From the IMG/VR virus record IMGVR_UViG_3300045988_097708, positions 1-64,000 of that record: 64,000 nt of DNA. One strand, written 5' to 3'. Positions 695 to 2,758 of this stretch are shown here, piece by piece. A program made the translations under genes and the position numbers. The stretch comes from a virus. The notes under the pieces were generated by a model. That model worked only from the letters and a program-made list of their open reading frames with translations. It was not told the DNA's origin and made no database searches. Positions within the stretch are counted from its first letter, which is position 1. Every line of letters starts with the position of its first letter.

Positions 695-969
695 TGGGCA
701 AGCAGCATTTGAGCCGGGACGACCGGATTTTCATGGACGGCAAGCGCAGAGGCACGCAGGAGTGCATGGACATGGTGGCGATGGCGTTGATCGACAAATG
801 CGGCTGGCACGTCTTAGAGGAGACATCGGACAGCCGGGACACCCACAGCATCGCGTATCTGTACGAGTGTCTGGAAAAGCTGGCGGAGGAGATAAACGAG
901 GGCCGCATCAAGCGGAAGCACATCAAGGACGTGCTGAAAGACGAGTGCGGCGTTGTGTTTGGAGATTAG
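694..969 (+). CDS. hypothetical phage protein
   Basis: ATG overlaps the upstream TGA (TGATG); internal start of ORF 559-969. Confidence 0.6.
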   Translation: MGKQHLSRDDRIFMDGKRRGTQECMDMVAMALIDKCGWHVLEETSDSRDTHSIAYLYECLEKLAEEINEGRIKRKHIKDVLKDECGVVFGD

Positions 970-981
970 GAGGTGATTTAG

Positions 982-2758
982 GTGAAACATTTAGGCGATA
1001 TTACGAAAATAAATGGGGCAGAGATTGAACCCGTTTGGTGTATTACAGGTGGTTCACCTTGTTAGACAGGATCTATCCATCGCCGGGAAACGCGCCGGTT
1101 TGGCGGGAGCGCGAAGCGGCCTGTTTATGAAGCAGGTGCGCATCGTAAAAGAAATGAGGGAGGCGGACAAAAGGAATGGACGGACAGGTGACATGGTTAG
1201 ACCTCGGTATCTCGTGTGGGAAAACGTGGTCGGCGCCTTTAGTAGCAACAAAGGAAAAGACTTCGCAGCCGTGCTCGAAGAGATCATCAAAATCGTCGAG
1301 CCGGAAGCCCCCGGTATTGAAGTGCCTGAAAAGGGTTGGCCTACCTGGGGAGGGTATCACGATGAAATGGGAGGACGATGGAGCGTGGTGTGGCGAACTC
1401 ACGACGCGCAATACTGGGGAGTGCCCCAACGCCGTCGTCGTATCTCGGTTGTCGCAGATTTTGGAGGAGACACCGCATCCGAAATACAATTTGACGGCGA
1501 AAGCGTGTCAGGGGATATTACGGCGAGCGGAGCGGCGGGGGAAGGACTTGCCGAAGCTGCTGAAAGAGGTTTTAATCCGGCAGGCGGGGACTGCATGACG
1601 GCTTGGGATTGCCAAAGCAAGCGCATTTTTGACACAAACGGAAAATCTCCCACACTGCAAGGCGGTGTTGGCGGTGGTGTGAACAATCCTGCCATATTTG
1701 CGGCTATTCCCATCAACGACAAAGCTACAAGATGGCAGGGCGGCGGAGAGAGCCGCAACCACGATGGCAGCGGCAACGGTCTTGGCATCGGCAAAGAGGG
1801 CGACCCATCCCCTACACTAACCGCCGGCGACCGCCACGGGGTAATGTGCATGACACCTTGGGACGCACAGAGCCAGCGCGTGTACGACGGAAACGGCGTT
1901 TCGCCTACGCTCAGCTCCCGTGAAAACAGAGGTCTGAACCGCGAGGCCGTACTGTGTGCCGGTTTTAAGCTGGGCAACAGTGAACAGGCGAGGAGCATCG
2001 GCTATCAAGAGGAACTGTCCCCTACACTGAACGCAGAGTGCGGAGGGAATAAGCCAACTGTGGTTGCACCAGCGGTGGCGCTGGACATGACACACGCCTG
2101 TGACGTCATCCGCGAGTGCGGGGAGCAAGTCCCGGCGTTGCAGGCTCGAATGGGGACAGGCGGCAATCAAGTGCCGCTGACATACGGCAGCGGCAACGGC
2201 CAAGCCAACGAAGCCAGCATTATGGCGGAGGAAGTCAGCCAAACGTTGAACACCATGCACGATGCTCAAGCAGTGATGTGTGAGGACGTGAGCCACGCGC
2301 TGCGGGCAAAGGCTGCCTGTGCGTACCGGGAGGACGCGGAGACATACCCGGTGCAGAACATGGTGGTGCGCCGATTGACACCGTTGGAATGCGAACGGCT
2401 GCAAGGATTCCCTGACCACTGGACGGACATCGGCGAATGGATAGACGAAAAGGGCAAGAAGCACAAGGACGCAGACAGCCCACGGTACAAGGCGCTGGGC
2501 AACTCCATCGCCCTGCCCTTCTGGGACTGGATGCTGCGGCGCATGGCGCGGTATCTGCCGGAGGGCGCGACGCTGGGGAGTTTGTTTGACGGCATTTCGG
2601 GGTTTAATGTCTGCTGGGCGAGAATACACGGAGCAGAGCACTGCCGGTGGAGTTCTGAAATTGAGCAATTCCCCATTGCCGTGACCAAAAAGCATTTCGG
2701 CGATGAGAAGTTAGGTGAGAAAGGCGACTGGGATATTTTTTCAGGAGGAATGACATGA
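982..2758 (+). pseudogene. DNA (cytosine-5) methyltransferase, motif order IV-VI-VIII-TRD-IX-X-I-II, interrupted by 4 nt inside motif IV
   Basis: GTG 982 frame gives GDITKI...GGSPC then TAG 1063-1065. The ORF 1013-2758 frame continues QDLSIAG, then LVWENV, QRRRR, LTPLECERLQGFPDHW, ALGNSIALPF, then SLFDGISGF and SEIEQFPIAV. Confidence 0.8.

Follow-up and report, generated by a model that had tools for sequence, protein, structure and literature searches.

A recurrent UAG-containing insert inside the catalytic motif of a circularly permuted phage methyltransferase: a candidate site of programmed recoding

The window analysed here comprises bases 1–64000 of a 78,497-bp virus record in IMG/VR (IMGVR_UViG_3300045988_097708) and carries, on its plus strand at 982–2758, a gene for a predicted C5 cytosine DNA methyltransferase whose reading frame is broken by four bases, TAGA. 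The break falls exactly between the codons for the catalytic Cys and the adjoining Gln of motif IV, the Cys being the nucleophile of C5 cytosine methyltransferases. The same insert, a UAG stop codon plus one base, is found at the same place in a large set of related phage genes, and the sequences on either side of it are conserved in two different frames. Our favoured interpretation, in which we have some confidence, is that TAGA marks a conserved, selected recoding site of the form UGU_UAG_H, at which either a bypass of 4 nucleotides (nt) or a +1 shift would throttle expression of the enzyme.

The insert, the enzyme and its relatives

The stop codon of the gene upstream (TAG, 967–969) is overlapped by a strong Shine-Dalgarno (SD) sequence, AGGAGGTGA (968–976), ahead of GTG 982. 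This GTG starts a 27-codon open reading frame (ORF), ORF1, with the translation VKHLGDITKINGAEIEPVWCITGGSPC, which ends in ...GGSPC at TAG 1063–1065. The remainder of the enzyme lies in the +1 frame, which reads ...VR QDLSIAGKRAGLAGARSGLF from CAG 1067, is open to 2758 and amounts to 581 residues when counted from ATG 1013. ORF1 ends with PC at 1062 and Q begins at 1067, so that a contiguous PCQ requires the skipping of 4 nt. When the window is aligned at nucleotide level with L005 (MT835513), an intact relative that reads TGT----CAGGAT, it proves to have exactly four extra bases, 1063–1066, and in the intact relatives (n = 43) TGY is joined directly to CAG/CAR. Coordinates and alignment thus bear out the original prediction, made from the window alone, that the lesion sits precisely between the Cys and Gln of motif IV. 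The features concerned, all on the plus strand, are as follows.

968–976, plus strand: Shine-Dalgarno sequence AGGAGGTGA of ORF1, identified from the sequence, with a G-rich GGxGGTGAT in every interrupted allele
980–986, plus strand: AGGUGAA, including the GUG start (982–984), possible 5' strand of a helix with 1053–1059 (RNAalifold consensus)
982–1065, plus strand: ORF1, 27 codons, encoding motif III (GDI), strand beta-4 and GGSPC, with its TAG stop at 1063–1065
1013–1066, plus strand: accidental +1-frame stretch MGQRLNPFGVLQVVHLVR from ATG 1013, a start that is not conserved
1048–1062, plus strand: nucleotide-constrained block GGT GGT TCA CCT TGT, defined by third-position statistics and containing an SD-like GGUGG, a possible GGUG/CACC hairpin, UUCACCU (1053–1059) and a +1-frame GTG (1049–1051)
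1060–1062, plus strand: catalytic Cys codon TGT, within ORF1
1063–1066, plus strand: TAGA, the insert of 4 nt, made up of a UAG stop codon and one further base, with no counterpart in intact relatives
1067–2758, plus strand: remainder of the methyltransferase in the +1 frame, with its stop at 2756–2758

Assignment of the gene product as a C5 cytosine DNA methyltransferase is by profile match. Pfam PF00145 matches the 581-residue frame at 1.5e-22 (80.9 bits, cut-off 22) and the joined reading at 7e-29, and the PDB profile matches are M.HhaI and M.HaeIII. The C5 motifs VI, VIII, IX, X and I are all present, with a region of multiple target recognition domains (TRDs) between VIII and IX. The second half of motif IV, QDLSIAG, starts at 1067 and is followed by ENV (VI, 1220–1228), QRRRR (VIII, 1427–1441), RRLTPLECERLQGFPD (IX, 2369–2416), GNS (X, 2498–2506), SLFDGISGF (I, 2579–2605) and SEIE (II, 2654–2665). 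This order, III-IV-VI-VIII-TRD-IX-X-I-II, is not the canonical I to X and is the same in the intact relatives; M.HhaI segments are met along the protein in the order 59–112, 146–169, 268–315 and 15–56. In the PDB profile search, residues 5–58 of the family profile align to M.HhaI 59–112, spanning Pro80-Cys81-Gln82. Judged by motif order, the whole methyltransferase family is circularly permuted, starting at III/IV and ending with I-II, implying that the 27-codon ORF encodes the true N-terminus and is not a fragment. AlphaFold2, applied to the joined product with 34 intact relatives, gave a mean predicted local distance difference test score of 42, and about 25 in the TRD region, too poor for a fold search. 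The variable region (about 1600–2330) has five or six TRD-like repeats (KSPTLQGG, DPSPTLTAGDRHG, VSPTLSSRENRG, LSPTLNAECGGNKP, QVPALQARMGTGGNQ and VSQTLNTMHD), and relatives differ in how many of these units they have and in what order, a pattern also known from multispecific phage methyltransferases.

The natural permutants reported to date have their N-terminus in the variable region, and one that lies between motifs II and III has been seen only among the engineered class B permutants, namely cp62M.MpeI and cp58M.SssI, which are the most active that have been made (PMC5944983). The window enzyme shares fold, motifs and exact topology with these class B proteins, its N-terminus lying between II and III, but differs from the natural permutants (M.BssHII, M.Alw26I and others), in which IX-X precede I-VIII. 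In common with the split C5 methyltransferase M.AquI, the window family tolerates splitting after motif VIII. We know of no described C5 methyltransferase, natural or engineered, that is broken between the motif IV Cys and Gln.

The insert is far from private to this phage. Among the best 80 IMG/VR relatives, 35 of the 78 scorable loci carry TAGA or TAGC at the exact site and the other 43 are intact. A codon-degenerate scan of IMG/VR (pattern GGN GGN WSN CCN TGY TAG N CAR GAY YT) finds TGT-TAG-[A/C/T] at the site in at least 117 contigs from at least 22 datasets; its matches represent 96 different contexts of 261 nt and over 50 different N-peptides, VKHYGSICEIDGSKIEPVSCITGGSPC and VEHLGDITKLNGYELPAVDVVIGGSPC among them. 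Of three GenBank scaffolds from a Mexican study of faecal viromes, two carry an interrupted allele and one an intact allele, and seven copies are found as prophages in Oscillospiraceae or Clostridia genomes, both metagenome-assembled genomes and an isolate, Oscillibacter sp. 1-3. The recurrence of an identical 4-nt insert at one place in so many independent contigs puts the break far beyond chance. It also disposes of one proposal of the original prediction, an assembly indel: in the light of this distribution across IMG/VR, GenBank viromes and bacterial genomes, an assembly artefact is excluded. Together with a very recent private mutation, or a Cys-less protein that would bind DNA and S-adenosylmethionine when made from ATG 1013, an artefact belongs to a group of explanations to which we give almost no credence; what speaks for them is that ATG 1013 opens the 581-residue frame in the window, and nothing beyond the bare sequence. 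Persistence of the same interruption in independent relatives had been put forward at the outset as a sign of recoding rather than decay, and such conservation is indeed what is seen.

Interrupted and intact alleles interleave on a tree of the first 167 residues, with a breakpoint at the insert. At least five well-supported switches between the two states are present on the tree, and 5' modules recombine onto near-identical downstream genes. Owing to this recombination, monophyly of the interrupted alleles does not hold for the downstream 140 residues. The interleaving and the breakpoint also suit a null allele, selected or hitch-hiking, in which the TAGA 5' module would silence the enzyme, for example avoiding methylation-dependent restriction, and would spread by recombination onto functional downstream genes, which would therefore still look intact. 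Prophage copies in bacterial genomes often have extra damage, a further point in favour of silencing, as are the additional frame problems of approximately 8–19% of interrupted alleles, compared with approximately 2% of an intact set that was sampled differently. Random knock-outs, however, would scatter over the gene instead of sitting at one position, and we regard a null allele as improbable for this reason and for those that follow.

Constraints on either side of the insert

Ratios of nonsynonymous to synonymous substitution (dN/dS) were obtained for the interrupted alleles only, unless stated otherwise, with each segment in its own frame. Codons 2–22 of ORF1, in frame 0, give a dN/dS of 0.27 (dS 1.39), and the first 20 codons 3' of the insert, in the Gln frame, a dN/dS of 0.08 (dS 1.17); for the same upstream and downstream segments the intact alleles give 0.18 and 0.05. 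Synonymous sites are saturated among the interrupted alleles. Wrong frames have dN/dS values of about 1–2 or are full of stops, the shifted downstream frames giving about 2, and in the ORF1 region the two other frames are mostly closed. The N-peptides retain the methyltransferase residues H3, GDI and GGSPC across deeply diverged interrupted modules, and the downstream frame reaches motifs I-II in 33 of 38 interrupted genes despite heavy TRD reshuffling (464 to 692 residues). By these measures purifying selection acts on both halves of the gene, in a different frame for each. Fresh inactivation, another possibility raised in the original prediction, is contradicted by the age of the interrupted alleles (dS about 1.2–1.4) and by the purifying selection on both halves. 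Nor would a silenced gene be expected to keep H3, GDI and GGSPC, with the dN/dS seen upstream, over such diverged modules.

The Cys-less protein from ATG 1013 fares no better, since the +1 frame 5' of the Gln codon contains stops in 71% of distinct upstream sequences and the ATG is not conserved. In one large clade this frame is open for just six codons before Gln (TGA TAG GTG GTT CAC CTT GTT AGA CAG). ATG 1013 is absent from several clades and no SD precedes it; its product would be without motif III and strand beta-4.

Constraint is also evident at the level of nucleotides. In 100% of 70–96 distinct interrupted contexts the start codon is GTG and is preceded by G (G981 in the window), with the G-rich GGxGGTGAT lying 5–8 nt 5' of it in every interrupted allele; the GTG and the G before it are both variable in the intact alleles, where the start is ATG in 81%. 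The five codons before the stop, GGT GGT TCA CCT TGT, have third positions T in 96%, T in 92%, A in 98%, T in 93% and T in 100% of the 96 interrupted contexts, compared with C in 86%, C in 62%, C in 65%, G in 78% and T in 51% of the intact alleles. This synonymous freezing is confined to these five codons and to the interrupted alleles, third positions farther upstream and everywhere downstream varying freely (1.3–1.8 bits). A stimulatory structure 3' of the insert was considered and rejected, the synonymous sites there being free.

The insert itself is no less restricted. Scans of the whole IMG/VR collection found TGC-TAG-N in 2 contigs, to be set against the TGT-TAG-[A/C/T] count given above, and found no contig at all with TGT-TAG-G, with a 4-nt insert starting TAA or TGA, or with a one-codon sense insert (PC-X-Q) between Cys and Gln. 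The absence of PC-X-Q speaks for the canonical PCQ as what is wanted. In distinct contexts TAGA occurs 65 times, TAGC 27, TAGT 4 and TAGG 0. Poole, Brown and Tate reportedly ranked, in 1995, the strength of termination in E. coli by the fourth base as U>G>A~C, and the preference at this site is the reverse of that order. A wobble codon in the P site, a stop read by release factor 1 (RF1) only and a weak fourth base are together what would be expected of a site that competes with termination. Neither a knock-out nor a site of efficient termination would need the UGU, UAG and fourth-base biases, and a knock-out would not keep a universal GTG and frozen synonymous sites, use UAG only, or bias its fourth base.

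Two possible RNA elements coincide with the constrained block. UUCACCU (1053–1059) can pair with the adjoining GGUG or with AGGUGAA (980–986), which includes the GUG start. The longer-range helix, AGGUGAA:UUCACCU, is predicted by RNAalifold from 30 diverse alleles, in which 96% of cells can pair, mostly as invariant pairs. It would explain the universal GTG and G981; we consider it plausible but unproven, and retain it as a possibility only.

The start codon varies in another way among the intact alleles. About a fifth of them have ATA or ATT, not a canonical start, at the conserved start position; in nine intact relatives (L011, L015, L032, L034, L044, L046, L059, L078 and L080) ATA, or ATT nearby, stands behind a good SD, and these nine have no canonical in-frame start. 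Such codons are apparently another way to damp expression of the same gene.

Crossing of the gap by ribosomes

How could a gene with a stop codon in its catalytic motif give rise to an enzyme? TAG is an ordinary stop in this phage, terminating 11 of its 77 ORFs, among them the gene immediately upstream, and none of its six tRNAs is a suppressor, so that passage from frame 0 to the +1 frame needs a non-standard event. An alternative code with TAG as Gln was rejected: it gives 'PCQ' but in the wrong frame, reading TAG as sense adds little coverage, and the suppressor tRNA is lacking. Near-cognate reading of UAG by tRNA-Gln followed by a hop to CAR was also rejected, as it misfits the TGA and TTGC variants described below and the landing on CAA for an anticodon CUG.

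From the conservation and constraints set out above we infer that ribosomes probably cross the gap. Ribosomes would begin at GTG 982 behind the strong SD and translate the N-terminus, 27 residues of which the last is the catalytic Cys, at which point peptidyl-tRNA-Cys would occupy UGU in the P site, through a G:U wobble pair, with UAG in the A site. Most ribosomes would terminate there, and a fraction would resume at CAG 1067 to give the full permuted C5 methyltransferase. Two outcomes can be envisaged. A 4-nt bypass would restore ...GGSPC-QDLS..., with INGAEIEPVWCITGGSPCQDLSIAGK as the predicted tryptic junction peptide; a +1 shift reading AGA would give ...GGSPC-R-QDLS..., with Arg replaced by Ser in other alleles. 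The signal would take in the 15 nt before the stop (GGUGG and UUCACCU), and perhaps also a helix sequestering the GUG start. We lean towards bypass over the +1 shift because there is no PC-X-Q allele and because of the rare variants that occupy the same position, which are as follows.

TGA (3 nt), L212: in frame, TGC-TGA-CAG
TTGC (4 nt), L214 and L215: UGU-U-UGC-CAA
TAGGT (5 nt), L218
TAGGGT (6 nt), L213: in frame, TGT-TAG-GGT-CAA
TGACCGC (7 nt), L217
TAGATGA (7 nt), L228: UGU-UAG-AUGA-CAG, with a UGA that blocks the +1 frame just before CAG
TAGATGT (7 nt), L219 and L224: UGU-UAG-A-UGU-CAG, in two diverged alleles with canonical, non-permuted motif order

Gaps of 3 to 8 nt are not explained by any single one-base shift. 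In every variant the triplet directly 5' of CAR is NGN, and usually NGY, so that as a group these alleles fit re-pairing of peptidyl-tRNA-Cys just 5' of the codon at which translation would resume. Take-off and landing triplets are matched as UGU...UGU in L219 and L224 and as UGU...UGC in L214 and L215, and nearly all the downstream differences between L219 and L224 are synonymous. The more specific proposal, of a natural and widespread 4-nt bypass by which the amount of methyltransferase would be set through competition with RF1, is one that we put forward tentatively.

Several observations weigh against recoding. In the main class the landing triplet, AGA, AGC or AGU, matches the tRNA-Cys anticodon poorly, with one or two of its three positions able to pair. 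UGU cannot re-pair at +1 (GUU, for an anticodon GCA), leaving a Ty3-like shift without re-pairing as the only kind of +1 shift possible. The SD-like GGUGG(U) ends 6–7 nt before UGU, not 3 nt as in typical +1 sites (PMC5009743). Covariation in the long-range helix is slight, with one pair showing double changes and 15 of 500 shuffles reaching its score, and the z-score for folding of the window is only -1.55. The rare variants occur only once or twice each and may not be functional. Recombination joins interrupted as well as intact 5' modules to near-identical downstream genes, so part of the apparent downstream selection could come from intact alleles. Finally, 96% of interrupted alleles have a GTG in the downstream frame, 14 nt ahead of the stop, which also suits reinitiation.

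This last observation is the basis of a different proposal, a two-piece enzyme, which we think unlikely though likelier than a null allele. Ribosomes would terminate at UAG, slide back 14 nt and restart at GUG 1049–1051 to give MVHLVR-QDLS..., and the 27-residue peptide ending in Cys would assemble non-covalently with the large chain, like C5 methyltransferases split in nature or by design. Such an enzyme would be nicked between its nucleophile and its catalytic loop, which would be unprecedented. The family does tolerate overlapping ORFs as well as splitting after motif VIII, and fragment complementation of C5 methyltransferases is documented, including for class B permutants (PMC5944983). 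Of the four distinct alleles that lack the GTG, L163 and L204 have a broken downstream frame, and L119 and L197 keep theirs open through motif VIII, L119 having a TTG farther upstream. GTG 1049 has no SD ahead of it, and in the variants L212, L213 and L228 there is no space where a start codon could stand. Two core strands and the nucleophile would have to come from the peptide, whose free carboxylate would lie beside the catalytic loop. Moreover, reinitiation does not account for the preference for UGU to UGC and for UAG to UAA or UGA, nor for the avoidance of strong fourth bases; it would favour efficient termination, and the opposite is seen.

Under programmed recoding, which we continue to favour, the likely effect would be to keep a multispecific phage methyltransferase, whose TRDs of the 'SPTL' type number about five or six, at a low level or dependent on RF1. 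The ATA and ATT starts of about a fifth of the intact alleles are in keeping with a low-expression role.

Other frames, known systems and biological meaning

A second conserved frame overlaps the gene at window positions 1176–1598 (conserved at about 1445–1595), on the plus strand and +1 relative to the gene frame, and ends in ...SRLSQILEETPHPKYNLTAKACQGILRRAERRGKDLPKLLKEVLIRQAGTA and a stop. This LSQILE frame overlaps motif VIII and the linker, and is found in the +1 frame at 167 of the 197 PQRRRR motifs in the fetched loci. Across the 50 codons of overlap dN/dS is 0.25 for LSQILE and 1.5 for the frame of the gene, with both frames remaining open; the peptide has no match in Pfam, PHROGs or PDB. 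At 1595–1598 its stop overlaps a gene-frame ATG (ATGA, GCATGACGG) in a classic coupling arrangement, which suggests a possible separate start of the part running from the TRDs to the C-terminus (MTAWDCQSK...). The frames are joined differently in L004, L049, L053, L054, L227, L098 and L101 and in Faecalibacterium phage FP_Toutatis (L086, gp14/gp15). In some of these relatives the LSQILE frame continues into the TRDs and IX-X-I-II and the catalytic frame comes to a stop, so that the enzyme is bisected; in FP_Toutatis and others, it is motifs IV-VI that share the frame of LSQILE, motif VIII lying in a different one. The switch lies near a G-rich run, which in FP_Toutatis is GCGGGGGGAGG, and may be slippage, phase variation or sequencing error. 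In Oscillibacter sp. 1-3 (L206) and in L137 the downstream frame departs from the family sequence directly after motif VI (MVWEN, then VPYALKHIRYVMNRKQLC...), the ENV motif there apparently containing an inserted element or a sequence resembling an intron.

Elsewhere in the window, ARAGORN places two tRNA-Gly genes (anticodons TCC and CCC, at position 36) on the minus strand at 42178–42254 and 42840–42921, one of them 82 nt long, which is unusual for tRNA-Gly. IMG/VR classes the record (L220) as having direct terminal repeats; its first and last 50–500 bases are not identical, so that any terminal repeat is shorter than 50 nt or inexact.

The closest parallel to the methyltransferase site is the terminase gene of the Streptomyces phage phiHau3, for which mass spectrometry in E. 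coli demonstrated bypassing of the 10-nt inserts (Antonov et al. 2023, PMC10732093). There too the frame of a phage gene is broken by a short insert at a point where insert-free relatives have adjacent, highly conserved residues, the insert opening with a slow A-site codon and an internal SD and stem-loop being proposed 5' of the short gap; in both systems a shift by one base would place extra residues within a conserved junction. In phiHau3, however, the gap measures 10 nt, or 7 in one prophage, the first codon is the rare sense codon UUA and three genes are known, whereas the candidate site in the window has a 4-nt gap, a stop codon, UAG, in first place, an active-site motif, more than 100 contigs and, in the main class, a poor landing triplet. 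T4 gene 60, with its 50-nt bypass, in which nascent peptide and mRNA structure are implicated, likewise has UAG directly after the take-off codon and joins two ORFs in its product. It differs in its long gap, its matched GGA take-off and landing sites and a take-off stem-loop that includes the stop; matching in the style of gene 60, as UGU...UGU, is seen here only in the rare TAGATGT variant.

A second point of comparison is prfB, the gene for release factor 2 (CUU_UGA_C), together with other 'shifty stop' sites. These share with the window site a short first ORF, a stop in weak context, the remainder of the gene in the +1 frame, an SD-like element upstream and conservation in numerous genomes, and by analogy the efficiency of the window site could report the level of a release factor. 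prfB differs in that it needs re-pairing from CUU to UUU and an SD 3 nt upstream, and a +1 product of the window gene, unlike that of prfB, would carry an extra residue, within the PCQ motif. A 2016 review of recoding includes no DNA methyltransferase and states that prfB has no known UAG/RF1 counterpart (PMC5009743). In the literature we found no report of a frameshift or bypass site in a DNA methyltransferase, and no described recoding site for gut Oscillospiraceae anaerobes.

If ribosomes do cross the gap, UGU_UAG_H with its 15-nt 5' element would constitute a new and abundant class of recoding site in phages of human-gut Oscillospiraceae. A 4-nt bypass would be the shortest programmed bypass known; it would also provide the first case of a recoding signal within a catalytic motif and the first analogue of prfB to sense UAG/RF1. 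More than 100 natural sequence variants would then be available for dissecting the signal, with the intact, TAGA, TAGC, TAGT, TAGATGT and TGA alleles forming a natural mutational series for short bypass and shifty stops, and the site could serve as a compact RF1-dependent translational attenuator. Annotation pipelines call such genes pseudogenes or two fragments, with the consequence that the methylation capacity of these phages, and hence their anti-restriction potential, is under-counted.

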